Positions 2,529 to 26,500 are shown, numbered from the stretch's first letter. The stretch is 64,000 bases of DNA from Candidatus Omnitrophota bacterium (GCA_035352955.1 DAOPYQ010000005.1:109231-173230), one strand, 5' to 3'. A program made the numbers and translations. The notes: generated by a model from the sequence alone, not told the origin.

Positions 2529-5500
2529 TTAAGCCGCCCGCGCGATCGATTCGCGAGCTTTCATTTCAAGGAATTTCTGGACCGCAACGCCCGAGATCAC
2601 AAACCCGCGTCCCGAGGCGTTCATTTCGATCAACTGTTCGATCCCCTGCTGTTCCGAACGGAACAACGCCTTCAAAAGTTCCGCTTTAAGAAGCTCCGGC
2701 TGCCGCAAAAGCTGCGGCTGCCTGGAAATAATATCCGCCAACCGGACCGCCGCGACCACTTCTAGAAGCGCCATATAATCCCGCACCAGCGCATTCCCCG
2801 CCGATTCCCCCGTGATCCTGTAGAAGACCTCGCGGACCATGCTGCCTTTCCCGGAGAAATTCGTCACGAACGGCACGACGGCCTGATCGTTGAGCGGACT
2901 GTACGAACCGTTCGCGGGGATCTGTCTCACGCGAACCCCTTTCGCCAAAAGTTCCGCGGGATTCAATCCGGACAGCCGTCCGCTGATCGCCAATTCATTA
3001 ACGATCGCCCCCCGCGTGTCGATTACTTTCATGAACTGGTTAAGCAGAACCTGCCCACGCTGAACCTCCGCACCCGCCGTCAGATCCAGCCCGATCGCAA
3101 GCCCGCGATCCTTCACATTCTCGAGATTTGCCAAAAGGACTTTTCGTTCCATGGAAATGACCTTCGCCACGGACGGATCGACTGTTTCCGCCATGATGCC
3201 GCTTTTCCCCGTCATCTCCGCGAACGCCGTCGGCACAAAAACATTATTAAAAGCATCCCACAATCTTTTCTCAACCCGCTCGACACCGTCTGAAAGGATC
3301 TCCGCCCTGAAAGCACGAACCGTTTCTACCGCTACTGGTTTCTGTTTTAACACCGTCTCCAGAACTGCGGCATAAACCTGTCTTTTTTCAGCACGCTCAC
3401 GGTCATTTTCCACCGTCGGTCCAACGACCGGCGAACGGACCGGCTCGGGAGTAGCAGCCTGGACAGCGCCGGCGGGGATCTCCCGGACGATCACGGCATC
3501 ATTTCCCTTCCCATGAGAGATCCTCTTTTCAACGACATAGTTTGATTCTGCCCCGGCCAGATCATTTTCAATCCCCTCCAGGCCCTTTTCCCACTTGCCG
3601 GTCAACAAAGTCCCCGCGAAGTAAGCCGCATGCCCCACGATCAAATCATGAGACGAACGAACGAAGGCAAGCTCCACCCGGAAGGTCGATTGCGTCTTTT
3701 TCCGCAACTGGACGATCTCCTCTAGCCGTGCCTTTGCCTGCTGCCTCAGCGACTCGATCTGAGGCACACTGGCCACGTGCGGCATCCGAATTTCGGCGCG
3801 AGAAGGTTTGGCACCCTTTTTTTCCTCAGCAAACGAGGTCTGACCCCTTTTGCTGTTTTCGGCAAGGATCGGCCATGGATTCCGGGCCGGTTCCGCGGGC
3901 ACTTTTTCCCAGGAATCAAGCTTCGGAAGGACCTGCCGGATCGCTTCCACCGGCATATCCGCGGGGATCTCGATCGTGTAATGCACGACCGAAGCCCGCT
4001 GTTGCACTTCCACGGCCTCCGGCCATTCTTTCGTGAGAGCCGCGCACTCTCCCGCATTCAAAACCCGGGACCGGAGGTTTCCGGAAACCGTCCGGGCGTC
4101 CCACCTCAACAAGATCCTCTCCGGCGTAATGTCCAGACGGCAACGGACGGAACGATCCGCCGATTCGATCGCGAGCCGTTCGGCAAGCATCTTCCATCCG
4201 AAGACAGGATCGCTTTCGGGAATCACGTCACCCGCGACACCGGAGCGCTCCAACGCCGTACGCGCCGCCGCGAGCGATTCCGGATAAGGCTTCGCCGGCT
4301 GCAAAAGTGCTTTAGGTTCCGTTAATCCCGTCTTGGGATCGACTTTAAGATGCAGGCTGGACGCCACCATCCGGTTCATCATGTCGGCGCGGACCCGGGT
4401 CCAGTCCATCTGCTCCAACTGGGCCAAGGGCGTCCTGCGGAGTTGATGAATCTCATAGCTCCAGGGCGAGAACTCTCTTCCCACATCCCTGACGCTGGGA
4501 TTCAGCCGCGCGAATTCCGATTCGAGTTCTCTCTCCATCCGGCTGATCTGTCCCTGAGCCGTCAAATACGGCCTGACACTTGATCCAAGATCTTTCAGGG
4601 TCTCCTGACTCTCCCCCAGCAAAACCTTGTTGACCCGTCCCTGGATCTCCTCGGACGAAAGCCAGTGGGAAACGTCTTCTCCCGTCTCTTCGAAGACTTG
4701 CTGCGCTATATCGTGTAGTTTGAAATCGAGCGGTTCATTCGCGATCGCCCGGATCTTGTACAACTCCGGAGGGCTAGGTTCTATTTGATCCGGTTTCGCC
4801 GGATCCATGTTCGCCCAATCCGAGAAATTCAACGCCGCGTCCCGACGCAAGAAAGCAATGTCAGGAGGTTCCATACCCATTTCCTTCGCGCTTTCAACCG
4901 CACACTGGGCTATTTTGTCCCAAGCCGGAAAGACCACGTTGTCGACATAATGCTTTTTAAATTGAACCGGAGTCCATCCGGCCGCTGCGGCGCGTTCGAA
5001 TTCAGCGATAGGATCCATCCTCAAACCGCTCATATCCGCTTCCGCGATCGTCCGAAAGACCGTCTCCCAGAGAGAAACCTGCTCCGGGTGGGTCATGGCG
5101 AGACGGTAGGGAAAGATCATATTCTCGGGCGTAAGCATCGCGTCCACTGCCATCGGGCCGGTCAACCCGGATCCTTTTTGCACAGCAGCGGCGGCAGCCC
5201 GGTATTCCGTATTGATTTGCTGTGTTACAGCATCCTTGAAACTGGAAATAAGACGGACAAGTTCCATTTTCGGGTTACGGGCCGCGACCTCGTCAAATTG
5301 GCGGATCAGCTGTGCGAGGCCCGAGGGCTGCGTCCGTGAAAAAACATTCACGATCGGCGTTTTTCTTGGATCGGAACCCATCGCCTGCATCAAAAGAGAG
5401 CCCAGATTCATGACCGGTCCCAACCCGCTTCCAAGATTTTCAAGGCCCGACGCAAGACTCGCCTCGGTCGCCCCGGCGGGCAACACGTTCGCGGCAGTCG

Positions 5501-8500
5501 CCGCGGCGAGCATCTGCTGCAGAAAATTACGCCTCGGGATCCCAACCCCCTCCCGCATCTCGGAGCGCCGATCTTTCTCTGCCTTGGCATTTTCTTCCTC
5601 TTGCTCGAGAATATTTAAAAAAGGTACCCATCTGGACAATCCTTGTTCGATCCGGTACTTTGAAACATCGAAGCCAAGGACGACGAGTTGCTTCAATAAT
5701 GCAGCCCTCTTTTCGAGGATCTGCGCCTGCATATCGGGATGCGGCCTGCTCATAGACGTCTCATGGAAAAGCCCCACCAAAAATCCCAGGTAAGCGGCCA
5801 GCTCTTCTAAAACCGGTTTCGGGATCACCCGGCTCGAAAGATAAAGCATCATGATTCCGCCATAGCTCAGGGTATCGGCATTGCTCAGAATTTCGATCAC
5901 GGTCCAGGAATAACGCTCGCCGACATGACCGTCCGCAGCGACCACCGCGTATTCGAGCTTCAGATCCTTCAAGAAATTCAACCCCGCCGTCACGAATCCA
6001 TCAGCGAACGCCTTGGCGGTACTGATGTGGAGTTTGCTCCTGACCTTCGCTTTGACGGAAACTTCTCTAGCACCGTCTTCCTCCCGCATCTCCGACCGGC
6101 CGGGGCCGGCAAGAATGGGCCACGGGCTGCGGGCTGTTTCTTCCGGTGTTTTTTTCAATTCCGTCGGTGCCGACGAAATCGACCGAACTTCCGTCTTTTC
6201 AACCGCTCTAAAAACCGGCCGTGCAGGCTTGGCAGAGACCGGCACAAAGCCCTTCGTTTCGCGCGACGCTTTACCGGCATAAAGATCATAGCGCCGGAAA
6301 AGGCTCTTAAGCACTGTCCGTTGGTCGATGGTCAGGTCCGGCGGCGCTTTGAAACTGGACCGGAGTCTTTTGACCACGACCGAGATCTCGAGTTGAGGGT
6401 CCGCCTCGATCTTCGCCAGAAGTTCCGGATTTGAGTCGACCTCTTCGAGGATCGTCCGGATCCGCTCAAAATACGGCCGGCCCATTTCCACGAGCTTCTG
6501 CCGTTTTTGCAGTTCATGCTCGCTCTTGCCAGCCGACGGGACATTTTTCTTGAGGTTCCGGTCATACGCCCGGATCACCTCGACAAGCGACTGAAGAAAA
6601 CCAATATTAATATAAGGTTTATGACGTTTCCGGTAATATTCCAGGCTCTTGTGAGCAATCTCATAGATAACAGACGCCGCCCCGTGCGGCCCGTGCTGCG
6701 CGTATCGGGACTCCATATCCTCAAGGACGCGAACGAATTCCTCGAACCGCTCCGCCATCATCCAAATATTCTCTCCTCTCCTGTCCGTCGCGCTGAACGG
6801 CGGGTGCCATACGCCGCCTTCCCGTCTTTCCGGACGAACTGGACTGGACTTACCGACTACGGACTGTTCCGATATTGATGTTTCGATCTCAGACAGGATA
6901 GCTTCCATTTTTTCTTGAAATTCCAGCGTCGCCTTCTGATAGTTCCGGAACGGCTCCTGCGTTGCGCTGTCCAGTTTATCTTTCACGAACTGCGCCATGA
7001 GCTTCAGTGTAGGTGACGTTTGAAAGCCATCCCCCGAAAGCACCGCGTCAGCCCAAGCTCGAAGCGTTTGCTTCTCCTTCCCGCTCCCGAACTCCTGGTC
7101 CGGGGCAAAGATCATTTCGATCTTTTCTTTAAGTTTGGCCATATCAAAGCGAATATCGCGCAAGCACATTTCTACCGTTTCACGGTCACCGGTTCGCAGG
7201 GAACGAAACAACGTTGCCTGGGCACCGCGAATATACGTCCCGTGACTTTTAAAAAAGTGAACCACACCGTCATCTGCCATGGACTTTCCGACAAGCTTTT
7301 CAAGCTCCTGTAGGAGCGCATCATGGGCTGCAGCGAAAATATCACATTGTTCCAAGACCCGAGTGGCCATCATCCTCAAATTCATCTCCCGCATTTCAGA
7401 TCGGACGTGGTCGTCAGAACCACGCCGAAGCTGTGCCGACGCGCCGCGCTTCTCAGCAGTCCCTGTGGGATTGGGAGTCGATGCGGAGCGGACGGGACCT
7501 TCCTCTGTCCCGCCGCGACTGTACCCAGCTTGACCAAAGCTGGGTGCAGAGCTTCCGGAAGACAAGGAATGAGCTTCGGCCGCCGGCGACCGGATTGAAG
7601 CAACCTCACGAATGCTTTCAAGTTCTCGTTTTAATTTCACAAAGTGGTCGCGTAACGCGAGGATCCAATCACGGTGGTTCTTGAGGATCGAAGCCAACTC
7701 GGCCTGTCCCCTTGGGTCCTTAAGGTAGTCGCATAATTCTCCCGATAGCTTTGAAAACGCCGCCTTTCCGTCAACCTCTTTCTCAAGCGTCTTCAGAAGT
7801 TTTTGCCGCTCAGGATCTTCCCGGAGGAAGGCGTCCAGGAATCGAACGCCCATCCCCATCTCAACGATACCTTTTTCCAAACTCAAGTCGTCGGGCGCAG
7901 GATGTTTTAGCTGCAAGTAAATAGACGAAAGGACATTGCTTACCCCTCCCATCAGCTCACGCCGTAGAGAAGTCTTTTGAAATCTCGCATCGGCAAGGAT
8001 ACCAACCGGATTATCCAAGGCTGCCAGAATGTCCTCCGGCGATCCCCCTTCGGATCTCACGGACACCGGCTGTTCCGGTACCTCCCGCAATTCGGAGCGT
8101 CCTGTCTTCAATTCGTGCGCGGGCGCACGTTTCTCCTCGCGCGCCGATGGCTGCGTTTGAGCGGGATCGCCTCCAATATGCTGGAAATTGAGAGGGATAT
8201 CGCCATAGGATGTTTTCAGACGCTTGGCCCAGTCCGTCTCGCGTGCCCCGAGTACCAGCGTCGCTCCGGTCTGCTTGGCAAAAAGCACAAGCGCCGTTTT
8301 CAGGATCTCCAGGAGGGTGCGATTGGAACCATAAAGATCGTCGACAACAACAACGCTGTTTTTTCCAGCTGCGACAGCGTCGATTGTTCCACTCAAGAAA
8401 TCGAGCACCGCTTGGAAGAAACTAACCCCGGCTCGATCGCTAAGGCCCTCAAAAAGCATGGTGTTGACCTCCGCGGAATCAAACCGGCTCCCCATCTTGA

Positions 8501-11500
8501 TACGCCTTACCGGCACAAAGAAACCGCGCCGGGCCCAAGGGATCGTTTTCTTAAAAAGCTTCAGGACCGCGCGAAGGTCGTCCATATTCTCCGCGGTCAC
8601 GATATTCGCCTCCCCGCCGCGCAGTTTTAATTGAATGACCCTCGGCGACGATTCTCCGGCCTTCGGCGGAAGCTCTGCTTCGATCTCAACGGAGTTTTCG
8701 TCATCGCTTTTTTCGGGCATCGCATAACCCAGCTCCGTGACCGCCAGAGCCACGCCATTCAAGATATCCAGATCGCGCAACGCCTTTTGGCAATTGGATT
8801 TGATCTCATCTGCAAAATAAGGCTCCTCTTCGTCCGGAATTTCTATTTCCGGGAAGAACCGGTTAACACCAAGTTTCTGCGAAATATCGCGAAGATCCTT
8901 CAATCGCTTCAGGATCTCCCTACCATCCGCCAACGATTCGATGGGGGTGGGCCTACGGCTCTGTTTTGAAAGGTCATCTTTTTTAAGTAATATAAAATGG
9001 TCATCTTTTTTGAGCAATGCCATGAACTCCCCGAGCTTGCGACGAAGCTCTTTCATGGCGGGAAGCCCCATTTTTCCCCGGAACGCTTGTACTTGTTCGA
9101 TCAACTCCTTAACCTTGATGTTCCTATAACGCTGGGCCGATAAGTACGCAATCCCGCCGAAAAAGGGGTCCTCGAAAGGCGAACCGAATCTCTCAGGACT
9201 GTAACTGTGAAAAGCAAAGTAACTTTCAGGAATGATCCCGTGGCCATGTAAAAGCGAATAGAATTTCGCGTCCGATTCACCACCGGGATCGAACCGGTTC
9301 CCTTGGGGCCTGATCTCCGGCAACGGCCCGGCTTTTCCGTTTTGCACAAAATCACGAGCCGCATCGAAAATAGCCTGAAACTGTCCGTTATCTTTCAACA
9401 CCTCGCGCGCTTCCAGGATGGAATGATCGCGGACATCCGCATCCCCCGCCTGATAAGGCCCCTTCGTGTAAAAGAATTTCAATTCACCCTGTTTATCAAC
9501 CGAGGTCAGCATTTTTTCCGCTCGGACAGGATTGTCAAATTCCTGCCGAAGCGATCCTTGCGCACTGGGCGCAAGGGCCGCCCGGACCTTCGCAGAAACC
9601 GAAGGATCGGCGAGCAATTGATCGACCGCTTCATGATGATGCGTCGCCGTGATCACGGAAGCACCCATTTCGATCGCTTTTTTGGAGCCTTGAAGAAACG
9701 CTTCTTCCGTCGCAAAAACTTCGTCGTGGATGAATAACGTATTGCGGCTCGCGTTATTGAGCCCGGCATCTTCGCCGGGACCGCGCGCGACAATATCCTC
9801 AAACCAGCTCGTCTCCAGAGGCGAAGGCACATACATCCCGAGACGCGCCATCACGGCGTACAGGGCGGCCCCCTTCAACAGAGTGGATTTCCCGGAGGCG
9901 TTGGGGCCCAACAAAGCCAGGAACGGCTTTTCGTTGGAAAGACGAAGATCATTGGGAACAAGTTCCGCCTTCACTTTAGCCGCATCTTCTCCCCGCTCCT
10001 CACCATCTTTAAGGCCAAGATAGGGATAAGTCAGCTGCGGCGCGTGGAAAGATCCCGGCTCGTCGATAAAAACCGGCCGTTGCCAGTTCTTCCGAACGGC
10101 CAGATCCGCCATGATCCAATAGAAATAAAGCTCGTCCGTGAAATTCTTGAGAAGAACTTCCATATCCGAATCGTTCTCAAGCGGTTCTGCCGCGAGCAGT
10201 TGCCCGAAACGGGTCCTGATGCGTTGATAGGCCGGCCCATCGAGTCCTTGCAGTAGGTTCCGGTTGTCGCGAATAACTTTCAGGACATCTTTCACATGAG
10301 ATTTATATCTGTTGTCAGGGAACTCTTCCCTATGCCTACCATATCTCCGCTTCGCGTTTAGGAACGGACGCGCGAAATAAAGATCTGTCAAAAAAGCCTG
10401 AAAGCGTTCGGAAAATTGCCGGTCAGAGCGGACTTTCCCTGCCATTTCTTCAATGGCGTCCAACCGTTCGAGCACCCGTTCGTGGCCCGGAAGCCGCTCG
10501 CTCGTGAGCATCTCGACATAACGGTAGAACGGATAACGGTATACTACTTCCCAATGTTCGATATCGGGATCGAGCGCTTTGACCCACTTTGAGAATTTGA
10601 TCCCAAGGAACTTCAAGAGACCGGAGGCCACCTTCTTCGCCAAAACAGGCTCGCCCGGTTTCGGGCTTTCCCGCATCTCAGAGCGAACGGTAGAAAGTTC
10701 TGCTGGGGTCTGAAGTTGAGAGATCAGGTCGCGGCTTTCGTAGACTCTATCCTGGCGCCAGACAAGTTCATCCTTGCGCCGATACAATTCCGTTTCCTGC
10801 TTGCGGAGTTCTTCAAGCACTCGCTCCTCGCGTTCCGCGGGATCCGCGCCACCGGCCCATTCCCAGAACCCGCGGTCTTTCAACGTGTAGACGCTGACGC
10901 CGGGCTCTTCAAGAAGCCTGATCCGCTCCCAAAGCGCCGAAAGTTCTTTCGCGAGAGAATCCAGCCCCTGTTTCACCAGTGACTCTTCGCGGTCGAGTTC
11001 TGAATTGAGCTGTTTGGCGTTGAAGGTTTCTCCTCTCTTTGCCCGCTCCTGCAGAGAATGCGGCCAATTCTGCGAGATTTGGAAAAAGCCCATAACCTTA
11101 TCAATAACATCGGGATTTACCTTCGAGAATTCCGCGAACCGTTCTATAGACAGTTCCGGACCGAGCAATCTCTGAACATGCCCGCGCTTTTGAATAAAAG
11201 CTCGAGCATCCCTGAAAATATGCGGTACCATTTCATCAAACAGCCGCCAGTCAAAACGTTGGATCCCAAAATAATCGTCGATCTGTCCCTGAAGTTCATT
11301 CACAAAGTCAAAACTGGCCTCCATGACACCCGGACCCATTCCGGAGAATCTGGAAACAATGTCACCAAGCGAGGCGGGACCGGAGAGCATTCCTTGAAGC
11401 ATGAATCCGCCAAACATCTGCATAAACCCGCGACGGCCCATCATGAGCCTGAGAGAATCCGCGGCAAAATCCTTGAGCCGGAGGATAGAGTCAACCGTCT

Positions 11501-14500
11501 CGCCCGTTTTCCTGCGAGATGTCCCGTAATTATCTTGCAGGGTTTCAAACACGAACGCCGCATTGGCTCCCTTGTAATCCCGGCAACGGTCGAAGAAGAT
11601 ATTCACGAGCTCTTCCCAGGTCAGCACTCCCGTCTTCTCCTTCTTTTTCCGTCCCTCCTCCATCGCCGTACGCGCTGCTTGATCGATCATCTTCTCGATC
11701 TCAAAAGAGACCGCCCCGTTTCCAACCGCGGAGGTTGGAAATGGTTCCCGCATCTCGGATCGGACGTGGTCATCAGGACCACGCCGAAGCTGTGCCGACG
11801 CAATAGGCGTCGGTGCGGAGCGCTTAAGATCCAGGATGTTCAAACGGTTGATCGTCATTCCAAAACGAAGATCCGTACTCTTTCTAACGGAGACCTCAAC
11901 TCCGCCTCGCGCGGCCAACCGGGTGATCTCACCAATGGCTGTTTCATCTTTCACCGCAAGATTGGAGAGGATCATGGTCGCCCGGTCCTTCATCGTATCG
12001 GTGATCTTTTTGATAAATGCCGCTTTCTGACTCTCCGGCACCGCGTCAAAAACATTGAGCAGCACATAGAAGCTATACGCGTTTTCGGGCAATTCTTCCT
12101 TTTCGAGAGAACGGAGCGTATCCGTAAAATGAATCCGATCGCCCACAAGGTCCTGACCAAAACGTCTTTGAATTCTTTCGACCGTCATCCGGTTCATCAA
12201 CTTGAGAACCTGGACATGGGAGGGATTCGGCTGGTTGATATCGACATGACTTTGATTCAAAGCGAACGGCGTCACGAATGCGTCTTCTACGCTGATCCCG
12301 ACCGCCAGCACGCGGTCTTCCGGCCCGGGACGAAGCGAATCGATGAACTCCGCAGCGCGAACCGCCTCTTCCGGCATCGATAGCTCGCGATAAACTTGCC
12401 CCGCCGTCATTTCACTCATCCCCCGCCGTTCCGCGCGATCATCCTCACCCACTTCGGAGACCGGGTCTCCGAAGCGGTCTCGGGCGCGGAGGACCGACTC
12501 GATCCCCTCATCGAGTTCGCGGACCTCCATGGCGAGAAGGTTTCTCTTGTGCTTCACGGCATCCTTCCTCCGATAGAAGTCCCTGCCCCATTTTCCGCGG
12601 AAAAAAACGCTTGCGTCGGAAATCGCGGAGCCCCGGTCCTTAAAAACACGCCGCAGAAAATCCATGTAGGGATCCTCCCCGGGACGATCCGCCCATCGGC
12701 TGAGAATCCGGAGGCTCGTTTTGTAAACGGGCAGCGGATTTTTTAGCGCGATCTCCAGCGCGGTCACAAGCATCCGTCCAAGCAGTTCCCCCGCCGCCTG
12801 TTTCCGCGGGCGATCGGTCTCCGCAGCGGCCACTTTGTCGGCATCCCGCACGAGGATCGAAACGATCCAGCTAAAAAGACCGGCGTCCCCGACCGAAAGG
12901 AAGAACCGGGCCACAAACCAGAAATTGCGCCGGATCTCCGGATCATCGAGATGCCCCATGATCACCTGGACCGGCGCGTAGATCCGCCGGGCATCTTTCG
13001 CGAACCGTCCGGCCTCGCCATACTTCTTCTTCCGCCTGCCCTCGGCATCTTTCTGGCGCTTCAAAAACTCCCGTATCACGGCAACGGCCTCATCCTTCCC
13101 GGTTTGGGCCACCCGCATAAACCCCTTGATCTCGTCGAAATATTTTTTATATTCCGGAGAACTGGCTTTTTTGTCGAGATCTACTTCGGCCTCATCTTCC
13201 TTCGAGAGCCCCTTTTCGCCGCGCCCTGTGCTGCGGCGCTCCGCGCGGTTAGCCACGGCTTCGCGCACCGAAGGCGGCATGATCGCCAGAAGCCCGAAAA
13301 CAACATCCTTCCCGTCGAATGAAAGAATCAACTGCCCGGGATCCCTCAGCCATCCGAAAGCCGCTCTGTCATCGTCAAGAGAAAGGTAAACAAATTCGAA
13401 AAAAAGGATCTTCAGGTCGTCCGAGGCGGCGGGACGGGTAGCCAGAGCGACGTCAAACGCCCGTCCCCGCGCCGCGGCATGGGACATCTCGCGATCCAGA
13501 AAGCGAAAGCGGCAATATTTCACGTGATAAACCTTCAGAAGCTCCAGAAGCCCTTCCGCAAGAGCGAACCTCTTTTCGATCTCGGCCAACGCCCGGTCGA
13601 TCTTTTCCCGGTTCCGGCGGACCGCCACAACAGGCCCCCGTTCCTTATCATGGGACAAGCGCACCAATTCTCTCGCAAGATCGTGGATCGGGACAATCTC
13701 GGGCTCGGAGATAAGCCAGGAAAATGAGGAAAGCCACCATGCGTTGGTCGAAAACTGCTGGTACTTTTTCTCCTCTGAAAGTTCCTGCCGCAGAAGATCG
13801 ATCTTCTCGCGGATCTCCTTGTTTCTCTTGGCGGCAAGTTCCAGCATGTCCCTCGCCCGGACCGACCTCACGCGTTCGACGATCCAGCGAACGTCCGGAT
13901 GTTCTTTCATCCGGGCAAATTCCGTTTCATAAACATGAAGTTGCTTCCGGAACAGATTCCACCAGGTTTCCGACTGCCACGGTTTTTGGGTCGGCCCGCG
14001 CCACACGAACCACGGCTTTTTCGGGTCCTTCTCATGAGCGTACTCCGCGACGCCCGCCTGAAGCGGCACGTAAAGAACATTGCGAAGTTCGCTTCCGGAT
14101 CTTTTTTCCATCGCCGGACGCCCCGCACCCGGTCCCTGCTGGCGAAGCTCGTGACGGCCCCTCACATTCCTCCAGGGATCATGAACCGGCGTCTTGGCTG
14201 CCAAAGCCCGCGCTCTCAGGAACTGATCCATACCGGACCAGGACTCGGGACGAATTTCCCCGAGCAATCCTCGCAGTTTTCCTAAAAACGGTTTCGGATA
14301 AACTTCGACGATATCGGGAATAGACGGATTTTCTGTCGCAAAAAGACGCCCGGGAGAGTCGCCGCTAAAAAAAACGCATCGATACCCCCCGATATCTCCG
14401 TAAGGCTTGACCTCAACCTTGACCCTCGTTTGGCCGCTGGCGGGATCTTTGAAAAAAACGTGCCACACAGCGTCATCCCTGGTTTCAGGCATCCTTGCAT

Positions 14501-17500
14501 CGTTCACCTCAAGCTTCATGCCCTTGGCGGACGCCACTTTTTCAAACTCCATACGGGGTTCCTTGGGCAAAGGTTTATTGCCAAGCTGGTGTTCCCACTC
14601 TTTTCTCCTATTCACCCGGTCCTCCCAGGCCCGATCAAGCGCGAACAAGACCACGAAAAACGAGGAAAGAAACGATACCTGCCGCACAAATTCCAGCGTG
14701 ACGTGCGGAAGCCTGAAATGCCCTTCCATGTAGACCCAAAAGGGATACCCGAACATGTACAACGCCGCAATGCCGCCGAGGATCAGGCAGGACTTGATCC
14801 AGATACTGCCGGTGCGCGAAGACGCACTAACGGAACCCTCCGGACCTCCCTGCCGAAGTTCCATGCGAGCAAGCGTTCCGAACATCGCGTTAACCTTCTT
14901 TTCCGCATCCCTGGCGTTCTCATAATCCGGCGACGGGACCAATAGCTGGGCCTGCAGGGCCTTTTTGATGATGGTCTCGACGTAGGAAGGCTCCCCTTTT
15001 TTGGAGCTAAACACCATTCGGAAATAATCTTTCGAAACCTGCCGCGGAAGCCCCCGTCTCCGGCCATCCGATCCGAACACGTCTTTGATATCGGAAACCG
15101 GAAAAGCCCTCCCGCTCAAAAGGATCGCCAGTTCATTGAGAAAATCGTCCCACCGGCGAAGGCGAAGGAGGGCAAGGACAAAAACAAGTTGTTGCCCGGA
15201 GATCATCTGGGTGTCCGGAGTGTAAAGCTGGATCCCTGTCAGAGCCCGCGCCATCCACCCAAGGACTTCTCCCGTTTGCGCATGAAGCCCCATCGCTTCC
15301 AGACGGAGCAGGAGCGCCCGGCATTTATTGAACGCATTCCAATAGGCGAGCGATCTTTCCTCGACACCAACCACCGCCGCCGCCATCCGCAGATCGCGTT
15401 CCGTCATCTCCAGTTCATCGATCACGCGTTTTCTCAGGGACTTGTAACGGAGGATGATCTGCTTTTTCATTATTTGGGCAAGATGGGCCCGGTAAACTTC
15501 CGCTTTCATCAACCCGGCGCTGTTTTTCTCGAATTCCTTGAAGAAATCAAGATTGATCTGCTGCCGCGCGGCTTCAGTCGCCTTAAAAATATAGTCCGGG
15601 TCCTTCCCGCGGTATCTTTCGAGCATCCGCCGGTGCTGGATCACCCATCGCTGTCCCGTGCGCAGCGAAACCGCGAGCTTTTTGATATCCTCCGGATTCT
15701 TTTCGTCCAAGGAATCCAGATAAGCGCTCGTATAATTGAACGCGTTGATCTGACGTTCGCTCTGAAGGACCCGGGCGACATTCCGTCCGGCATCCGCGAT
15801 AAAAAACGGCAGTGTCGCCTCACAAACCAGCACCACGGCATACTTGTCGAAATGCTCCATATCCGCCCGCAGTTCTTCATCGTGCAACTTGTCGGCCTGA
15901 GCTACCAGCAGATCGCGCGCCGCCCGGATCTTCCGGATCCAGGAAGGATCCATGGGAAGATTCGGATTTGTTTTATCCGCCATCGCATCATGCATGGCCT
16001 TGTATTTCGCGACCGCCGACGGACTCCCGAATGCAATCCCCTTATTGGCAAGGCGGCCCGTAGCCTCTGCGCGCGTATGGTAAGAAACATCCTTCCGCGC
16101 GATCTCAAGCGGAGGCTGGAGCGCCATGATCAAGGCATAGAACCTGGAAAAACAGACCTCCAGATCGGTGCTGAGAAAGAAGAGCATCAACCCGTAAAAG
16201 TCGGCGGAGGCCTTGGCCGTTCCCGGCCCCCGTTTGATCCCCACAAGAAGCTTGCCCAGCTGCGGGTCCCAATGGCCCAACCTCCGGCGCAACGATTCGA
16301 CGCCCTCTTTTTTAAGGATGTCCCTACAGAAATCAATGAAGGGCCCGGTCCCGCTAAAATCACCGGCGATGCGTTCGAAAAAAAGCTCGAAAAGCGGTTT
16401 GTAAAACACCTCCCCGTATAAAGAAGGATGGTCCATGATCACGGAAAGGAACGATTCTTCGCCCGAGGAACCGCCTTCTCTCAGGGAATTCTTGAAACGA
16501 AAAATAAAATTCCAAAGGTCCTCCGCCGCATGAACCGCCTTGGCCGTTTCATCGGGAAAGTGAACCGCGCCGTGAACATTTTCATAAGCCTGCAAGGTCT
16601 GCCGGAGATAAACGTCGATTTTTTCGATCAATCTTTTAATATCAAGGATTGCGGCCCGTTCCGTCCCGCCCCGGGAAAGATCTTCAAGAAAAGGCGCGAA
16701 TTCTTTTTTCACTTCCCCCCAGTCTTTCAAAAACCCCTTGAGATCCTCGATCCGGCTGTTCCGCAGAAAGAGCGTGAAAAAGATCGTGACATCCTGCAAC
16801 GACTCCCGGATCTTTAACGGATCACTGTTCCCCCGGGGCTTCAGATCACCCAAAAGCCTCGAAATCTCCTGGATCTGATCTTCAAGCCAGTCTAATTTCA
16901 TCTGCTCCGGGGATTGATACTCTCGCCTTTCCTTCAGCCGACCGGAAGTCCGGACCTCCGCGCGGCTCTCTCTTCGGGACTCGCTTTCCGCCGCCTTTGC
17001 GTAGGCCACGGAAACTTCTTGGGCGGTAGGAAGCGGCCCCTGTTTCTTTTCATGATCCGTCTTTATCGAAACCAGGGCAGCCTCAAGCGCCTGAAACCTT
17101 TGCCACGCCTGACCGATCTTTTCGATGAAAGCGTTACGGTTGGCTTCCGCTTCAGGGGCTTCAAACAAGACCTCGTAAATAAAATATTCCGCCTGCTGAA
17201 CACGGTCGAGCGCCGTCTCCTTCGTCGCGCCCGCTCCGGGATGAGGCACATTCACGGGCGTATGGATCCCGTGCTTCGCAAGCGCCTCCGCGATTTCTCC
17301 GTGCGACTCCAGGATCTCCCGGATCGCTTCCCAGGCGATCAGCGAGATCCGGAGGTCCACGCCGTTCCTGGTCTGGGCATACTCCGACATCGATTCGCTC
17401 AGGATCGTGGCCGGACCCCGGACATTGTGCGATACCCATGCCTCCCAACTGACCGGTTCAACCGTTTGGTACGAAGTCCCGTCGAGTCTCTTTTTTGCGA

Positions 17501-20500
17501 CCTTGCCCCACACCGTTTCCCGGCTCAGCGGGGTCAACTCCGCGAGCGGGACAAAGACCGCCCCAAAGTCACCCAGGAACTTCTCAAAATCAAGATAAGC
17601 CTCGATCGCAGCCGCGATCTTGGGCCAGGCGTTATAAATATCGAGAACGGCTTGCTTGAATTTTTCATAGTCGTTCCCCGGAAACGCACGGTCGGAATTA
17701 AACGCGAGATTCATAAGGTACGGGGTCAGGTCCCCGTAAGGCACGATGTCGGTTTCGCGGTACTTCTGCAAAACGGAGGCGCGTGACCTGAAATCCAGAT
17801 TCAAAACGTCCCGGAGCCTGGGCTCAACCTCGGTCTGTTTCTTGCGGATCGCGTCAAAATCTTCCCGTATATCCGCAAGCGTCTGTGATTTTGTTTTGGG
17901 CGACAAATATTCCAGCTCCTGCAACGCATAAAAGATCCTGTTTGTCCGGCTCGAATAGGTCCCCTTCCCGTGTTCCCAAAAAAGATCTCCCACATCCGGG
18001 AAAAACACCTTGCCGTCTTTTTCGGAAAGAACATCCCCACGGATACCGCTCAGGGCGCGGATCCGTTTCATTAATTCCACAAGATAATCCCACGCGCCTG
18101 AGGCTCGTTTAAAAAGGTCCGGCTCGTTCCAGTCCGGTTCGAGAATGAGCTCCGCGGATCGAAGTTCAGCCCTGTCGAGATCCGGTTTTAGATTGCCCAA
18201 CTCGAAAGCTTTGCTTTCTCCGGTGGCCGGAAAGTTGACCGGGGTCTCTGGTCTCTGGTCTGCGGTCTTAGTTTTCAACCGGTTCATGTGATGATGAAGA
18301 GCGACGTCGAAACTCTGGCGGACGAGGCGAACGTTCTTTATCGCCCCAACGCCAGGATCCGTCGCCACAGCTGAGGCAAGCTCGTCTTCCAGAACTTTGC
18401 GAGTCCCTCTCACCGCATCCGCAAAATCATCCGCATAGGCTGCTCCGTCGATCTTCGCAAGTAATGCTGGAAGGGTTGCCGACGATTGAATCTTCGCAAA
18501 CAGCTCGCTCACCCTCGGATAGAGAAGCGCTCCTTTTTTATCCTTTTCCCTCGCAAGGGCCGAGATGTGTCTCTCCATCCAAACGGCGAACGGCCGGACG
18601 GCGGGTGAAATGGCGGCGTGCTCTTTCTTTACGGGAACGAACGCGAACGCCTCGACCTCGACAAGCCAGTTCGGCCGGCACACGTCCCCGATAACATAAA
18701 TGATGGGAATATCGGGGAATTTCTTATCCACCGCTTCCTGGATAGCCGCCGCATCTTCGGGCCGTTTGATATAGACGCGCAGCTGCGGGATATCCTTGAG
18801 GTCGCCCATGCGCTGCGTGAGCATCATCCGCACGCTGTCGATCATGTAGAGGGTTTGACGGACCGGATCGCCGATGTACATCTCGGCCTGGCCCTTGGTC
18901 GAGGCCGTGCCGGAGATCAGGACCATTTCGTAACCGGGAGTCACAACCGACATCGCACGCGACCAAAGCGGCGGCTTTTTGGTCTCAAGCGCCTTTTCCT
19001 GAACAACGATCGTATATTCATCGGGGTTCATCTGCCGTGCGCTTTCAAGGCGGAGCGCGTGGACGTTGCTTTTTTTTGCGACAAAGGCGAGCGCCTCCAT
19101 CACGATAGAACCGCTCTTGTCACGTAGCGTCCCGATCCCGGTCGACGCGGGAGGTTTGCCCAGATTTCCACCTTTGATCAGCCCTTCCCCGAACGGGATC
19201 GATTTCCCGTTCATCGAGGTCATAAAGTAATCGTAGCGCGGATTATTGATTCCCCACTGGTAGTTCCATTTTCCCTCGGCATCGTAATCAACGATATGGT
19301 CCTGGTAGAACCAGGTGCGGAGCACTTGCCGGTAATCGAGAACAAAATCGGGGCCGACTTTATCAAGTTGCTTCAGCTTGGCTTCGGCTTTCTTCAATTC
19401 AAGGTAGGTCTTTTCGAGGACATTCCAACCGCGGTCGTAAGTTTTGGTGATCGAAGGATCGGGTGTGATGCCGCCGACATAAACCTGGAACAGATCCGCA
19501 TCCTCGAGGATCGCGCTGTGTTCGCTGATGCGGAGCACCTGGTTCGGCTCAGGGACATATCGACTTTCGTCATCCTGAGCGGAGCGAAGGATCTGAGATT
19601 CTTCACTCTCTCCACGTCGGGGCTCAGAATGACGGGACGAACCCATCGCCACGATCTCGACTGTGAACATGCTTCCGTCAGCAGGAGTTTGTTCGAGATA
19701 CGTCGTGACCGGAGGCTCGACGCCCGTGCCGTAATATTCCCGCAGGGCTTTTTTGATCTTTTCGCGGTCCGCGTCCGTGATATCCCCGAACGAGATCACC
19801 TGTTTGAAGATGTCATCCTTCCTGATCTTCTGTTCCGCGATCAAACGGTCAAGATGCCCGATAACGCTTGCGATCTGTTCCTCCGCCGTCTTCCCTTCCG
19901 ACGGCATCACGGAGAAAAACACCTGCCGTTTCCCGTTCCCGAGTTCCACCGCCTTGGCGCGCGGCTCCATTTTGAGAAGTTCTTCATTGATCGCCTCACG
20001 GGACAGCAGAACCTCAGAGGCCACCCCGGTCGCGATCGCTGCGCCGGAAGACCGGACAGGTTCGCTGTTTCGAATTTCCGCCCGAGCCGGGATATCCTGC
20101 CGGGCAAGATCGTCGAGAGTCGGGACCACCGGAAGATCCTTTTTTTCGAAGCCCTGTGAAAAAGCACTCTGAAGGTCCTGTTGTGTCTTCGGGTCAAGCG
20201 AAAGGTCCTTCGGGAATCCGTGACGGACAAGGAAACGCGCGAGCCTCACCGCGTCAGCGTAAACCTTCCGGTAGTCCTGCGCCACGAGATGCTTCCCGGA
20301 TAAAATGGGCGTCAGAGAAAGCTTCTGTCCCGACTCGCCCGGAGAGACGATCCCCGCCAGGACGCCAAACCCATACTTGGGCGTTTTAATATCGGTATGG
20401 AGTCTGATCTTGTCGATCAGCGCGTGCTCCGGCCGGTACATCTGCGGGGAAGTTCCGATCGTAAGCGTGTCCCCCGCCACCCGCGCATTAAAAATAAATG

Positions 20501-23500
20501 TTCCGTTCCCGGCGGTCATCCCCCCGAGCGTCTTTTGGATCGCCTCGTCCCCCACAAGAGCTTTGTCCTGGTCATAGACCCGGACCTTCCGGAATCCGCC
20601 CCGAAGATCTGCGCTCCGCCACAGGCCGGGGATCTGCAGGAAAAGAGAGATCACGGCATCCACTTTGCTCGCGGGAGTCACCGTACTTTCCTCGGGAGAT
20701 CCGATCCAGACATCCACGACCTCGACAACTTTTCTTCCAAATTTTCGCAGCCGGCTAAGAAGGTCCGTATCAAACGCAAAATCGACCGTGAAATCCGGGT
20801 CCAGGTTCCAGTCCTCGTCGACGGGTTGGATCTCGTCGAGGGCTTCGCGCGTGAACGCCTTGAATCCCTGCTGAGTGTCACGAATACGCCAGAAACCGAG
20901 AAGGACCTTCGTCAGCATGTTATAGATAAAACTGCCTCGCCGTTCCTCATCAAGGCGCCCGTAAACGATCGCTCCCTTGCGCCACCGCGAACCGATGGCG
21001 GCATCCGCTTCCCCGGAAGCAAGCTTCTCCAGCAAAAGCCCGGATTCCGCGAGCGACACGGCACGATCCATGTCCGTGAATATGAAATACTGTTTTAACG
21101 CCTTCAGGATTTCCATGAGCTTGCGGAACGCAAGGACAATCCCGCTCCCTTTTTTTCCGCCGATACCGTCGTTCTGGTCCTTATTCACGAACCAGACCTG
21201 CACCTGCCCGGACTTCAGCTTCTGGGGAAACATGTCCTTGAGGATCTCGAGCGCGACCTGGCCGGAGCTCTTTTCGCTCTTGATCTTTGGCTGCGGGACG
21301 TCCCCTTCAAGTTTTTTACTCTGGAGGAATCCGAGAACTTTTTTAAGCAACGGCCGGACCCAAAAAGTCAGGAAGGCTTTGTACCACTTCAAGAGAAAAG
21401 AGCCTTCTTTTCTCTCCGGCAAAAGGTTGAACCTCAGTTCGTCCGCCGGATTGCTCAGATCCATGGAGCGCTCGCCGTCATCGGCCAGCAAAAGAACGTA
21501 CCGGACATTCGAATTGACGGAAAAAAGTTCGTCAAGCTCCCGGATCTTCCAGACAAGCGCGTCCTCGCCGTTCGGATTCTTTTCCGCCGAGAACGGCCGC
21601 AGGCGGTTCTGTTCCCCGTACATCGAAACGGCAATGCCGACCTCGATGGGGTCGCCGGTGCGCGGCAAGCGGTAAACCGCCAGGAAAGACCGGATCAGCC
21701 GTTCGGCTTCCGGCAAAAGATCATGGAGCTCGGCGTCCTGCGCGAGCATGCCGTCCAGCATCGCGGCGCTCTCATCAGCACGGGGACCTTTGAGAAGCGT
21801 CGAAAGCGCGGCCGAGATCACCGCCATGCGGTCTCTGGCCTTCTTCGTATCAAGCGGCCCGAGCCGGTCGGCGTGCCAATTCATCCTGAGGAAAAGCCCT
21901 GAGGCCAGCCGGTCGACCTCCCCAAGATAGCCGTCGCGCAGCGGGTTGTCCTTGATCCCGTTCTCGAGCATCTGCGAATCGGGCATGGCTTTTTCCATCA
22001 AATCAAGCGCGCCCTTCAAAATCGCGCGGGGCCGTTCGCCCTTGGCAAGGATTTCCACTTCTTCGTCATACCGGATCCCGAGCGACGCAAGCTGATTTGC
22101 GGAAGACATCATTTTCATCCCGCTGTCCCCTTTCCGGATAAAAAGATGGACCCCGGTTTTCGCCGTTATTTCCGACGCCAGATCGGCAAGGATCTTGCTC
22201 GGCCGGATATGGATATCATTTCCGTTCAAGACATGAAACGTCCGGCGCATCTCCGGCCAATTTTCTTCCAGGATCCCCCCGCCGAAAATGACCTGCGGAA
22301 ACCGGGGCGGGACCTCCGGCGTCCGGAGCTCGGAACGAGGGGTGACACGGAAAAACGTCTGGGGGGGGAATGTGAACCGGACCGTCGTCTTGTGCCCTCC
22401 GGTTCCCGGCGGCAAAAATTCCATTTTTCCGCCATGACCTTCGACCACGGCACGAACAAGGGCGATCCCTCCCCCATGAGATTTAAAACCAGCTCTCGGA
22501 AAAATGCCTTCTTTGACAGAATTCGGAACGATCGTAAATCGGCCCGCCGCGTCGATAACCTTGGAAATCCCCACGCCATCGTCATAAACTTCCCATAGGC
22601 CATCCCCATTTTCTGCTTTGCCCGCGCGAAATCCGATCAGACCCTGCTGACCGGCCTGAGCCTGGGCATTCAGCCCGTTGGCCGCCATCTCCCGAACGAT
22701 CCTGAGAGGCGTCCATTCACGGGTAAGCGCATCAGCTAAAATGATCTTCGCCATGGAATCTTCTTCCTCGTCCGGCAAAAGATCGGAAAGAGCTTTCCTC
22801 AGGCCGTCGTCAGACCATCTTTTTGTCCAAAAAACATTAAACTCCGTCTGGGTCTTCGCCACGAATTCATCGAGAAGTTTCGATAAACTTTCTTCCGTAT
22901 CCTGCAAGGTCGGCGCCGGCCGTGGCGATACCGTCTGATAGATCACTTCTTTCATTTCAACGGGGGGCTCTGCCTTTTTCCAGGGGACTTGCGGCCCGAG
23001 CTCTTCCAGTTTTGCTTCGACCTTTTCAAGAGATTGGAACGTAAACTTTTCTTGGGCACGGCCCTTCCCCTGCGTTGAAAGAACGAACTTTGTGCCCCAG
23101 AAGCCCCCGCGGGAAATGTCGATTTTGATCACAAACTCTTTTGCCGACCCCATCGACAACCGGAAAGGATCCTCGGGATTCCCTTTCTTCCTCTTCGTTT
23201 TGGCATCCTCGGGATCCTCCTGTTCACCGTCCCTCACCTTAGATTTTTCAATCGCGATTTCCTCGGGATCCTGCGAAGCTTTCCCCGTGAATTTAGCGAT
23301 ATGGGCATAATCAGGATGCACCGAAAGAAAAGAGAAAAGACCGGCCGCTTCGCTCTGGAACCCGGTGTTCAGCGTTATTTTGTAGACGTCCGTCAGCTGC
23401 CGGTCCGCCGCAGCGCCAAGCACGGAGCGAACGGATTCTTCATTCCCAAACCATTTCCAGAACCGCTTTGAGAGATCGGCTAGCGCTTCGGTCCACGAAA

Positions 23501-26500
23501 CCTCGGGCTGGGCCATTCCGGCCGAGAGGATCTTTTCAGTGCGGGCGCGATAATCTCTCATCATCTCCCGGCCCCGTGGCGTGTGCGCATAGACCTGTTC
23601 GGCCATCTCCATGGTAAGGATTTCGCCGATGATGTCGGCGATCCCCTCAAGCGACTCCTTCTCATGGGACCCTCTAACAAGGACTTTCACAATAGCCCCG
23701 GGGTCCGTGTTCAGATTAACCATTTCGGTGGTTTGTGCGATACCGATCTTTTTATGGGTCACCGGATCGACCAGCTGAACCTCGATGCCCGAAGGAGCGA
23801 ATACTGTTTCCCCAAGTTCTTTCAGCAGACCCGCCGCCGGCGGCATATGCCACCCCTCGGGCCCGACGGTAAAATCCCGCGCGATCTCGCGCTTTTCCGC
23901 GCGATCAGCCCCCGCCCCGGTTTCAAGACCCGGTTTTGACACGAGGGAATCTCGCTTTTCTTTCCGCGTATCCCAAAGATCTTTCGGCCAGAGTTTCAGA
24001 ACGCCCTCTTCCGGAGCCTCAAGGTAAAACCCGTCAGGCATCGTGGGCCAGACTTTTTCAGCCCCCACCATCCGGCGTAACAACCTGCTTACATCCTTCC
24101 TCGCAAAGTTGATCTTTCCGGACGTTCCCACTTGCAGGTTCACGGCCAGCGCCACCATGAGCCCCATCAATTGGGAAGTTTTAGTTTCACGGAAGCCGTA
24201 TAAACCCGCCTTTTCTCCGTTCTGGATCAGGAGCCGGTCGCGGGCGGTCCTCCATTTTTCTGAAAAAACGTCCAGACGCATGACGCTAATATACGGATGT
24301 CTTTCCGCTGCCGGCAACATCACAAGGGGCTTCCCCTCAAATTTCTTACGAAGCCCCGGCGGTAGCACAAGCACCGAATCCTTTGTGAGACGCACGAAAC
24401 CCTCCGTAGCCGGTGCGGCTTCCGGGAGCCGCTGAGACACCGCATCCGGGATCTCCTTGGAAACGGTTGTCTTCGCCGCCAACGATGCCGCTTCTAATTT
24501 TGCCGCAGCCTTCGGATCGATTTCACGGAGCCGGGCAATAAATTCCTCCCGGGTGCCGGGCTCCCCGAGCACCATCCATCCTAAAGCGATCTTTTCCTCA
24601 TCCGACAGCGGTCTCGACGCACGGACCTCCGAGCGGCCGAGCGCCCGGGGGTTTTTCACAGCGGCCAAAGCATTCCCCATCACCGTCTTTTCTTCGAACG
24701 GGACGCCCTGGATGAGGTCCCGGAAATCCCGGAAGAACTTCTGCCCGAGATGCATCATCGAGAACCGCGCGACCTTTCCGCGATAATCGCCGCCCAGGGC
24801 CCACGGCTCATAACGGATCGCGTTCTCGTCCAAAGCCCGTTCCGCCAGGCCGATATGCTTATCCGTCAGAAGCGTCAACGCCCGTCCGACGATCTCACCG
24901 GCCCCATCGTATTGGTAAGTCTTACGGAACTCGAGCCATTCGGTCTGGAGATCGTCCAGGTAACGGGCGTTCTCCGGGTCCGCCTCGAGACCTTTGAGAA
25001 GCGCGGGTCCATTCACATCGCTGACAGGATCACGGCGGTAACCTTTCCCATCGGGATCGCTCCATAATCCGATCCCCGTCCTTATGAACTCCTCTTTTCC
25101 GGTGCGCATGAGGATCTTCAAGGCTTCGGTATCCGTGATCGAAGCGATCCTGCCTTTTCCATCCTTCTTGAACGCCTTGGATTCAAGCCAAAGGAGATAC
25201 CCCTGATCAACGGGATTGGCCGCATAAAGGTTCAGCATCATCATCTCGCGGACGCCCGCGAAATAATCCCGGGGCAATGCCTTGAGGATTCCGAAGACCT
25301 TTTCGAACCTTTCACGGCCCTTCAAATAAGGAATGGCATCCACCGCGGCGCGAAGTTCTTCCGCAAGTCTGAAATAGAATTGCCCGCTTTTCAGGCTGTC
25401 TTGGCCATCTTCCAGGAGACGCGCGACAAGATCCATCGCTCTTTCATCGCCGAGTTCCGCGAGCGCGAGCAGTGCCGGTGGCATGATGGCCGCTTTGTTG
25501 CCGGCATGCCCGTTCAATTCGCTCCCGTCCCAATAAAGGACCGAACGCTGGTAATCCGCGTCAAAATCAACGGCTTTCCAGAGGACTTTCGTCGTCTTCG
25601 CATCCGAGATCCCGGAGATCCCAAGCGCCTCGATGGCTCTCGCCTTGATCCACCAATAGGTCGTCGCCTCCGGACCCGCTAGTTGCAGAAGCCGCTCATA
25701 GATGCGTTTGTCTTTTTTTGCCAGTTGACCGAGGCTTTTCGTGACCGTTTCGCCCAACTCGGCGAATGGCCGGTAAGCATCATCAAAACGCTGTTCTTTA
25801 TCCTGCGCGGCCCGCCATCCGGCGTTGGGGGAAAATCCGAGCAGCTCAAAGAGCCACGGCGCGTACTCCGCAAGCCCTTGCTCCCCCGCCATTTCGGCCG
25901 ACATCTTGATGAGCGGAATGGCCCATTGCACCGCCTGATCGCTGTAATAACTGCGAGAAAGCCCCTTCGGGATGATCTCAAACCAGTCGGAATCGAAGAC
26001 CCCGAACTTGTCCATGCCGTATTCCCTGGAAAGCGGCATGAAGGTCTCGATAATGAACTTCGCGACCTCCGGACGCGCCGGCATCAAAGCGCGGAGAGCG
26101 TAAAGGATCGGATCGCCATGGGCCTCGATGCTCGACATCTCCCGGCACATGAGAAGGAGCCGCATGAGCCGGAGGACCTCTTTGTAGATCTTCTGCCGGG
26201 GGACGGCGGGATTCAGACGCTCGGAGATCTTATCGAGATATTGTCCGAGACGGTTCATCCGGTTCAGGACCATCCGCTCAAGGCCCGCCTGTTTCGCGAT
26301 CTCTTTTTTGGGAAGATGCAGCGTAATGACCGTTCCGGGGACCAGCGTCTTGAAAACCCTGACGACTTGCGCGGAAAGAGGCATAAGTCCCGAGGCGCCC
26401 TCCAACAGCGCCCTTCCCCCCGGGGTCTCGCCTTCCGCTTTACGCGCGTCAAAGGCCTTGCGGCTTTCCCAGGAAATAATATATTTCTCGTGATTGGAAC

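Follow-up and report, generated by a model that had tools for sequence, protein, structure and literature searches.

A twin-arginine-type leader at the start of one cassette of a giant Omnitrophota protein

The window analyzed here, a 64,000-nucleotide (nt) stretch of DNA from a Candidatus Omnitrophota bacterium (GCA_035352955.1 DAOPYQ010000005.1:109231-173230), carries on its minus strand a single unbroken open reading frame (ORF) of 10,302 amino acids (aa), within which we find a segment with the build of a twin-arginine translocation (Tat) signal (aa 9297-9327), directly behind a short peptide, RSEMRE, of a kind that recurs along the protein and that we refer to as a junction. Members of the family to which this ORF is assigned comprise a Sec-type N-terminal signal, an N-domain of ~600 aa, a variable series of protein-sized units (cassettes), and a C-domain of ~220 aa. 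Within this architecture, the Tat-like segment is probably a targeting element placed at the start of a cassette, rather than a product of chance. The parts of the ORF on which the argument turns are the following.

2529..33437, minus strand: giant ORF, 10,302 aa, a member of the Omnitrophota 'cassette-train' family of giant proteins
33297..33437, minus strand: predicted Sec-type N-terminal signal or anchor, aa 1-47, ending before QS, with its hydrophobic peak at aa 14-41 (n-, h-, and c-regions read by eye from the sequence)
31395..33215, minus strand: conserved N-terminal domain (N-domain), aa 75-681, defined by alignment, with the invariant motifs IQDAH, EG, and GGFH; predicted local distance difference test (pLDDT) 78 in AlphaFold2 (AF2)
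5550..5567, minus strand: junction RSEMRE, aa 9291-9296, one of 19 junctions in the ORF
5457..5549, minus strand: twin-arginine-type leader, aa 9297-9327, with n-region GVGIP, RRNFLQ, an Ala-rich h-region, and A-G-A before T or T-E-A before S
3801..5549, minus strand: leader-headed cassette, aa 9297-9879, 583 aa, between the junctions at aa 9291 and 9880; an orphan
3786..3800, minus strand: junction RAEIR, aa 9880-9884, which closes the leader-headed cassette
3381..3395, minus strand: junction RAEKR, aa 10015-10019, directly ahead of the C-terminal domain region
2532..3203, minus strand: conserved C-terminal domain (C-domain), aa ~10079-10302, defined by alignment; AF2 pLDDT 82; ends in -AA

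The peptide and its place, ~9,300 residues into the ORF and right behind RSEMRE, are as the initial annotation had described them, and so are the RRxFL motif of the n-region, the Ala-rich h-region, and the AxA-like site, which here offers small residues at -3/-1 in either of two registers (A-G-A before T or T-E-A before S). The core, RRNFL (aa 9302-9306; window 5520-5534), follows RSEMRE within the region of aa 9291-9327 (window 5457-5567) and matches the default TatP pattern, RR.[FGAVML][LITMVF] (PMC1182353). Twenty-one uncharged residues extend past the arginine pair. The h-region, with a best 12-residue Kyte-Doolittle mean of 1.41, stays below the threshold that we used for transmembrane (TM) segments, a heuristic of our own set at a 19-residue mean of 1.4, and its hydrophobicity is too low for a Sec TM segment, which is also the case in Tat signals (PMC1182353; PMC5449189). 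Moreover, a strict Tat-like detector, which requires RR.F[LIVM] together with 13 or more uncharged residues and approximates signal predictors, matched the ORF at two positions (aa 9302 and aa 7335), compared with 0.037 matches expected per shuffled protein of 10,302 aa. The second of these matches lies in the following segment.

11328..11444, minus strand: second Tat-like segment, aa 7332-7370, 104 aa past a junction and preceded by two Met residues

This segment shows no significant similarity to the region at aa 9302 and is not homologous to it; it could mark an unrecognized, degenerate junction or be due to chance.

The ORF contains 19 copies of the junction motif, R-[S/A/N]-[E/D]-x-R, where 1.65 are expected (11-fold), and the narrower form of the motif, RSExR, occurs 11 times against an expectation of 0.36. 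Across the family set on which all motif and leader counts are based (89 proteins and fragments; 269 thousand amino acids, kaa), we counted 486 instances versus 36 expected (14-fold), with a core of R-S(75%)/A(22%)-E(97%)-[V/L/M/A...]-R, in which the fourth residue may also be A, T, S, Q, or K, and with flanks rich in S, P, A, and E. The six RSEMR copies of the ORF differ from one another in synonymous codons, and it is therefore the peptide, rather than the DNA, that is conserved. Furthermore, the motif is essentially specific to the giant ORFs, at ~1.4 per 1,000 aa in family ORFs versus ~0.03 in other ORFs (after removal of other giant ORFs), and it is absent from the ordinary neighboring genes. 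The favored variant differs from protein to protein: RSEMR in the ORF studied here, RSELR (seven times) in the relative L029, RAExR in P0008, and RSD[IV]R in P0006. A literature search on the motif strings returned only irrelevant matches. Besides those at aa 9291, 9880, and 10015, detailed above, the motif scan places the junctions of the ORF as follows.

Within the ORF, minus strand: junctions starting at aa 1096, 1454, 2072, 2935, 3179, 3701, 4452, 5089, and 5492
Within the ORF, minus strand: junctions starting at aa 6731, 7001, 7226, 7585, 8447, 8679, and 9114

The intervals between junctions have the size of ordinary bacterial proteins, with a family-wide median of 341 aa (interquartile range 203-512) and a span of 135-1239 aa in the ORF studied here. 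Six Pfam domains were found in the ORF (LMW phosphatase, PPDK_N, DnaJ, HATPase_c, HPr, and L-PSP, all of cytoplasmic type), together with a weak additional match to MutS_V, and each of the six occupies a separate inter-junction interval; the DnaJ domain begins 4 aa past one junction, and the HATPase domain ends 8 aa ahead of another. We therefore read the ORF, from its protein-sized intervals and the separate placement of its domains, as a train of about twenty protein-sized cassettes held between fixed ends. Each cassette has the look of a whole, ordinary protein, mostly of a cytoplasmic type, and the arrangement is what would be expected of proteins strung together that used to be independent or are still sorted one by one. 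This corrects the initial annotation on one point: the C-terminal ~1,000 aa, which had been taken as one former protein, are divided by the junctions at aa 9880 and 10015, so that the unit behind the leader is the cassette of aa 9297-9879, and the last ~220 aa are the shared C-domain.

Two observations on the surroundings of junctions may be added. A ~55-nt near-identical DNA repeat (window 7389-7442 and 11748-11801, minus strand; aa ~8665-8684 and ~7212-7231) encodes ASAQLRRG[S/P]...; in contrast to the other junctions, a junction and its upstream linker have here been copied as DNA, which may mark a recent duplication or recombination at cassette boundaries. Otherwise, almost no internal repeats were detected in the ORF. 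Separately, the peptide AR[S/N]PWPILA stands shortly ahead of the junctions at aa 9114 and 9880 (aa ~9103-9113 and ~9860-9870; window ~6099-6130 and ~3830-3860) and may be an extended pre-junction element.

The relatives provide the principal evidence that such leaders belong at cassette starts. Family-wide, the strict detector found eight internal Tat-like leaders versus 0.7 expected, and five of the eight begin no more than 13 aa past a junction (P = 8e-5), against a background in which 7% of residues lie within 40 aa past a junction. With the window excluded, the relatives alone yielded six strict matches where about 0.66 were expected, four of them beginning within the same 13 aa (binomial P = 3e-4). 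Many of these leaders are more canonical than that of the window, and several bear complete AxA sites or a lipobox: L041 has RSEVRTNRRTFLGALGAAGAFGF; L040 has ...SSRRYFLGLCLKSFAFASVAGLPSVVLA before QS, more fully RSEARDNRLQGSSRRYFLGLCLKSFAFASVAGLPSVVLA before QS; L029 has RSELRLTRRSFFPAAAAGAAAFYATVTGASA before QE; and L033 has a lipobox leader, RSEMRRRDFLGMMLKTSAAVVAAAVVPGLTG before C (RSEMRRRDFLG...PGLTG before C). One relative's post-junction leader passed the cut-off of the hidden Markov model (HMM) TIGR01409 and two more fell no more than 2 bits below it, with the second leader of L033 serving as positive control at 24.1 bits. The leader of the window is one of the weaker leaders of the family.

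Signals of the Sec type show the same placement. Among 110 strongly hydrophobic segments, 14 begin no more than 20 aa past a junction versus 4.7% expected (P = 7e-4), an enrichment that emerged only with a stricter hydrophobicity threshold and with the larger, 89-protein set; these segments include textbook n-h-c/AxA Sec signals, such as RSEARKFLGLKGFVLAAALFLSSMTYA before QS. Overall, about one in twenty cassettes opens with a Sec-type signal of its own, a first TM helix, or a twin-arginine-type leader. In L001 (aa ~2645-2910) and in L002 (aa ~945-1210), one cassette is an entire membrane protein of the MarC family (PF01914, positions 2-203 of 203; six TM helices), which begins 2-5 aa past RSE[IL]R, in one of the two directly (2 aa) past RSEIR. 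These cassettes are orthologous, come from two genomes, and keep both the junction and the first TM helix at ~50% identity. A cassette with a peptidoglycan-binding PG_binding_1 domain also has a post-junction hydrophobic segment; in the Pfam search, MarC, PG_binding_1, and HEAT were the exceptions among Tat-led and signal-led cassettes, nearly all of which are orphans.

Two of the Tat-led cassettes could be traced further. The one in L029 has homologs only in the family proteins P0032 (twice) and P0033, and all three copies that were viewed (L029 and both of P0032) follow a hydrophobic or RR-containing leader, each of a different sequence or type. That homologous cassettes are preceded by differing leaders suggests that the presence of a leader is maintained. 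The cassette in L040 has one marginal stand-alone match, P0034 (E = 1.3e-4), which carries a hydrophobic anchor of its own and is suggestive only. Taken together, these sequences show that cassette-initial targeting signals recur in the family and apparently are maintained there.

How the leader of the window would act can be outlined as follows. It would bring the 583-aa cassette to the cytoplasmic membrane or carry it across, with Tat as the most plausible pathway, because Tat takes completed, folded substrates post-translationally and because the h-region is Tat-like in its hydrophobicity. Two routes may be envisaged: (i) cutting at the RSEMR and RAEIR junctions would free the cassette, leaving the leader at or near its new N-terminus, or (ii) the leader would act while tethered, as does the internal Tat signal of the Streptomyces Rieske protein. 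The hydropathy of the ORF revealed no stop-transfer segment downstream of the leader, and the first route fits better, because an uncut chain would drag the C-domain across the membrane here, unlike in the other members examined. The segment heads one cassette of a cassette-train protein, and we regard it as evenly balanced whether it currently functions in export, which, like cleavage, we infer.

Several results weigh against this proposal. The strict detector was devised after the motif of the window had been seen, and a looser test on the first 31 proteins gave no significant enrichment of hydrophobic stretches past junctions. The isolated leader, moreover, matched neither PF10518 (cut-off 22.7 bits) nor TIGR01409 (cut-off 16.7 bits) at E values up to 10, and it reached only 13.7-14.3 bits on TIGR02811 (formate_TAT), the cut-off of which is 48.45. 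Its flanks are atypical, with Gln rather than the usual Lys past RRxFL and Pro rather than Ser or Thr ahead of RR, and its c-region is acidic, not basic. Consequently, the initial annotation went too far in calling the segment indistinguishable from a genuine Tat leader; a relative's leader passes TIGR01409, and this one does not.

The cassette itself gives no further help. It has no Pfam domain, and its homologs were confined to the same protein in a HMMER search of 1.84 billion representatives, with none found in a word-indexed search of 5.8 billion clusters and none in JGI metagenomes, so that the stand-alone homologs with the leader at their true N-terminus that the initial annotation had in mind did not appear in any of the three collections. 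An orphan cassette that lacks a recognizable domain lends the proposal no support from leader conservation or from a cargo typical of Tat. Neither tatA nor tatC was found by tblastn in the 64-kb window or in 1.3 Mb of 80 related Omnitrophota loci, which is a small, biased, and uninformative sample; a literature search returned no paper linking Omnitrophota and Tat; and two preprints on Omnitrophota giant genes name Sec components, never Tat (10.1101/2023.11.21.568195; 10.64898/2026.06.07.730766). Finally, no protease fold was found in either conserved end domain and no protease domain among the Pfam matches of the ORF. For the fused or processed polyprotein put forward in the initial annotation, the modular train, the junctions, and the post-junction leaders are thus borne out; no such support was obtained for a cut at RSEMRE, for a protease, or for a Tat translocase.

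These same results lend themselves to a different account, in which the cassette descends from a captured Tat-exported or Sec-exported protein and the leader is a non-functional remnant that has not yet decayed. In favor of such a gene-fusion fossil, the leader scores below curated Tat cut-offs and has Glu in its c-region in place of the usual basic residue; that Tat genes were not seen in the window or the related loci, and that the orphan status of the cassette prevents a demonstration of constraint, are equally in keeping with it. Furthermore, an active leader on an uncut chain would export the C-domain too, and the members examined show no hydrophobic leader before that domain. However, many independent proteins have cassettes that start with an intact n-h-c leader, the three homologous copies in L029 and P0032 are each led despite their differing leader sequences, and the MarC cassettes have retained both junction and first TM helix. 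Decaying relics would be unlikely to be so well formed across a family of 25-55% identity, and we accordingly hold the fossil account to be unlikely.

The junctions raise a second doubt, since they end in Arg and have flanks rich in S, A, E, and P, which heightens the local chance of an arginine pair and of low-complexity stretches. On that basis, the segment might have no targeting role and be an Ala-rich helix, amphipathic or serving as a linker, or else a stretch that binds membranes peripherally, after an arginine pair that arose by chance beside an Arg-rich junction. The other RRxF[LM]Q segment of the ORF (aa 7335) does not adjoin a junction; curated HMMs do not call the leader; and the authors of TatP report that 15% of cytoplasmic proteins with RR close to the N-terminus are false positives when the pattern is used by itself (PMC1182353). 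Chance of this kind is hard to reconcile with the low number of matches expected in shuffled proteins, as well as with the junction bias in independent relatives, several of which have complete AxA or lipobox sites, and we consider a segment devoid of targeting function to be quite improbable. An internal restart at the ATG within RSEMRE, which would yield an independently translated protein of 1,009 aa with a leader of textbook length (30 aa, cut before TE) and which draws on the Met at position 4 in six of the 11 RSE[MLV]R junctions of the ORF, is largely refuted and was rejected as scarcely credible, since no Shine-Dalgarno-like sequence precedes the fourth codon of any junction, fourth codons include GTC and CTC, which are unable to initiate, the fourth residue varies as widely across the family as stated above, no promoter-like site was found on the minus strand at 5300-6300, and the frame stays open throughout its 30.9 kb.

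Returning to an active, cassette-initial leader, a wider picture may be drawn, which we put forward only tentatively, as possible and rather doubtful: the giant genes would be 'operons in one polypeptide', in which a putative protease that co-evolves with each lineage cuts at R-S-E-x-R and the cassettes are then sorted individually. Most cassettes would remain cytoplasmic, whereas those with a Sec or Tat leader or with TM helices would go to the membrane or periplasm; should the chain enter prey, the cassettes would be routed by the Sec and Tat machinery of the prey. On this view, the Tat-like leader of aa 9297-9327 would be a case of the scheme at work.

The ORF agrees with the 'multi-enzyme' class described for giant proteins of Omnitrophota (West-Roberts et al. 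2023, 10.1101/2023.11.21.568195; Nielsen & Lui 2026, 10.64898/2026.06.07.730766), with which it shares the phylum, an N-terminal signal, and many unrelated enzyme domains along one polypeptide, and, in the relatives of the ORF, the HATPase, methyltransferase, and GNAT-type content. Cleavage after translation has already been suspected for these giants (10.1101/2023.11.21.568195; 10.64898/2026.06.07.730766); the 2023 preprint states the cleavage points to be unknown (10.1101/2023.11.21.568195), and in the 2026 preprint signal peptides called in later chunks were treated as artefacts of the chunking and suppressed (10.64898/2026.06.07.730766). Neither mentions a junction motif or gives cleavage points. 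Moreover, the named classes are defined by C39 or S8 peptidase, SecA-like, and dockerin domains, all of which are absent from the Pfam matches of our ORF.

Internal, tethered Tat signals do work in dual Sec/Tat membrane proteins, such as the actinobacterial (Streptomyces) Rieske protein (PMC3471235; PMC5449189), where an internal RR motif and a weakly hydrophobic segment, like those seen here, are used to translocate the C-terminal domain. There, however, TM helices inserted by Sec, even in number, stand a short way upstream of the RR and the cargo is a cofactor-binding one, whereas here ~9,300 residues of mostly soluble cassettes precede the RR, the cargo is an orphan without a cofactor domain, and no C-terminal positive charges stand past the h-region (...TEAS). 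The only strongly hydrophobic internal stretches of the ORF, and thus the nearest TM-like segments, lie >2,400 aa upstream of the RR, which departs from the dual Sec/Tat arrangement.

14634..14810, minus strand: pair of TM-like hydrophobic segments, aa 6210-6268 (hydropathy)
~12846-12917, minus strand: third TM-like segment, aa 6841-6864 (hydropathy)

None of these three segments adjoins a junction. Compared with canonical N-terminal Tat signals, the leader shares the RRxFL core, the long, uncharged, and weakly hydrophobic h-region, and the small residues at -3/-1, and it differs in being internal (it begins at aa 9297 of 10,302, not at the protein's N-terminus, a position that it would gain only through cleavage), in not being called by PF10518 or TIGR01409, and in having no basic residue in the c-region.

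In MARTX toxins and in the gingipain precursors RgpA, Kgp, and HagA, conserved ends bracket variable, shuffled, effector-like modules that are freed by cleavage at short inter-module sites. The ORF resembles these systems in its conserved terminal regions around variable, shuffled modules; unlike in them, neither a protease domain, of the cysteine type or any other, nor RTX-type repeats were found in it, and its junction motif is different. We know of no MARTX or gingipain system in which the modules carry Sec or Tat signals of their own.

As judged from sequence comparison, the ORF belongs to a multi-copy family of giant proteins that is almost confined to Candidatus Omnitrophota metagenome-assembled genomes (MAGs). 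A genome scan with the N-domain yielded 420 relatives. Of these, 80 were retained, almost every one from an Omnitrophota MAG, and a single genome often holds many paralogs; this distribution would by itself point to Omnitrophota as the source of the window. At least nine copies, some of them close together on one contig, are present in the MAG SO_2016_GW1_117, and the paralogs L075 and L080 are both on contig JBAYGD010000007.1. The N-domain stands behind the signal peptide in every full-length match, with its motifs, and aa 75-681 align with 10 relatives at 25-39% identity. A HMMER scan with aa 9290-10302 over the 1.84 billion representatives returned 31 proteins, many of them 2-7 kaa long; apart from P0001, which is the same protein, nearly all match only the last ~220 residues, at their own C-terminus. 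Indeed, 30 relatives match query positions ~790-1013, always at the extreme C-terminus, and one exception, P0026, instead aligns over a brief part of the interior of its own chain (query 731-795). The C-domain is thus common to all family members, with a leader or without.

Neither the AF2 model nor the sequence of the N-domain gave a significant match in the PDB or Pfam, and the AF2 model of the C-domain gave no significant fold match; the erythromycin-esterase-like structures 3b55 and 2rad were weak, non-significant matches of the end-domain models (E about 2-3) and serve as a lead only. The C-termini of P0002-P0031 end in -AA in 25 of 30 cases and in -SA in the remaining five (window 2532-2540 in the ORF studied here), and these ends resemble recognition ends of the ssrA type or of tail-specific proteases.

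The neighbors of the ORF are ordinary chromosomal genes, namely uvrC, murJ, holA, comEC, leuS, mnmA, and mscL. Two ORFs on the plus strand, 1048-2268 (406 aa) and 2294-2689 (131 aa), run opposite to this series and have no Pfam match; the true downstream gene is probably on the minus strand, running off the start of the window, and is MetH-like in L082. The latter is contig DAONFQ010000020.1 of MAG GCA_035403665.1, to which window positions 914-32250 are 100% identical. In this public contig, the giant gene is cut by the contig end and was called from an internal Met as P0001 (6,573 aa), so that the public annotation is ~3,700 aa too short.

Giant Omnitrophota proteins are a recent puzzle, in that each might act as one chain or be cut up, and predictions of whole-chain topology place obviously cytoplasmic enzymes outside the cell. 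The giants themselves, their suspected cleavage, and internal Tat signals are known, the last in a very different setting. R-S-E-x-R junctions together with cassette-initial Sec and Tat leaders provide concrete and testable predicted points of cleavage and a scheme of piece-by-piece sorting, and they give grounds for taking signal peptides called inside such chains to be real features and not artefacts. With the junction motif, the giants could in addition be split computationally into tractable units for the prediction of structure and function. If the 'operons in one polypeptide' were real, the placement of cytoplasmic-type enzymes outside the cell would be resolved, and if processing does occur, the family would represent a bacterial polyprotein with pieces addressed to different compartments.

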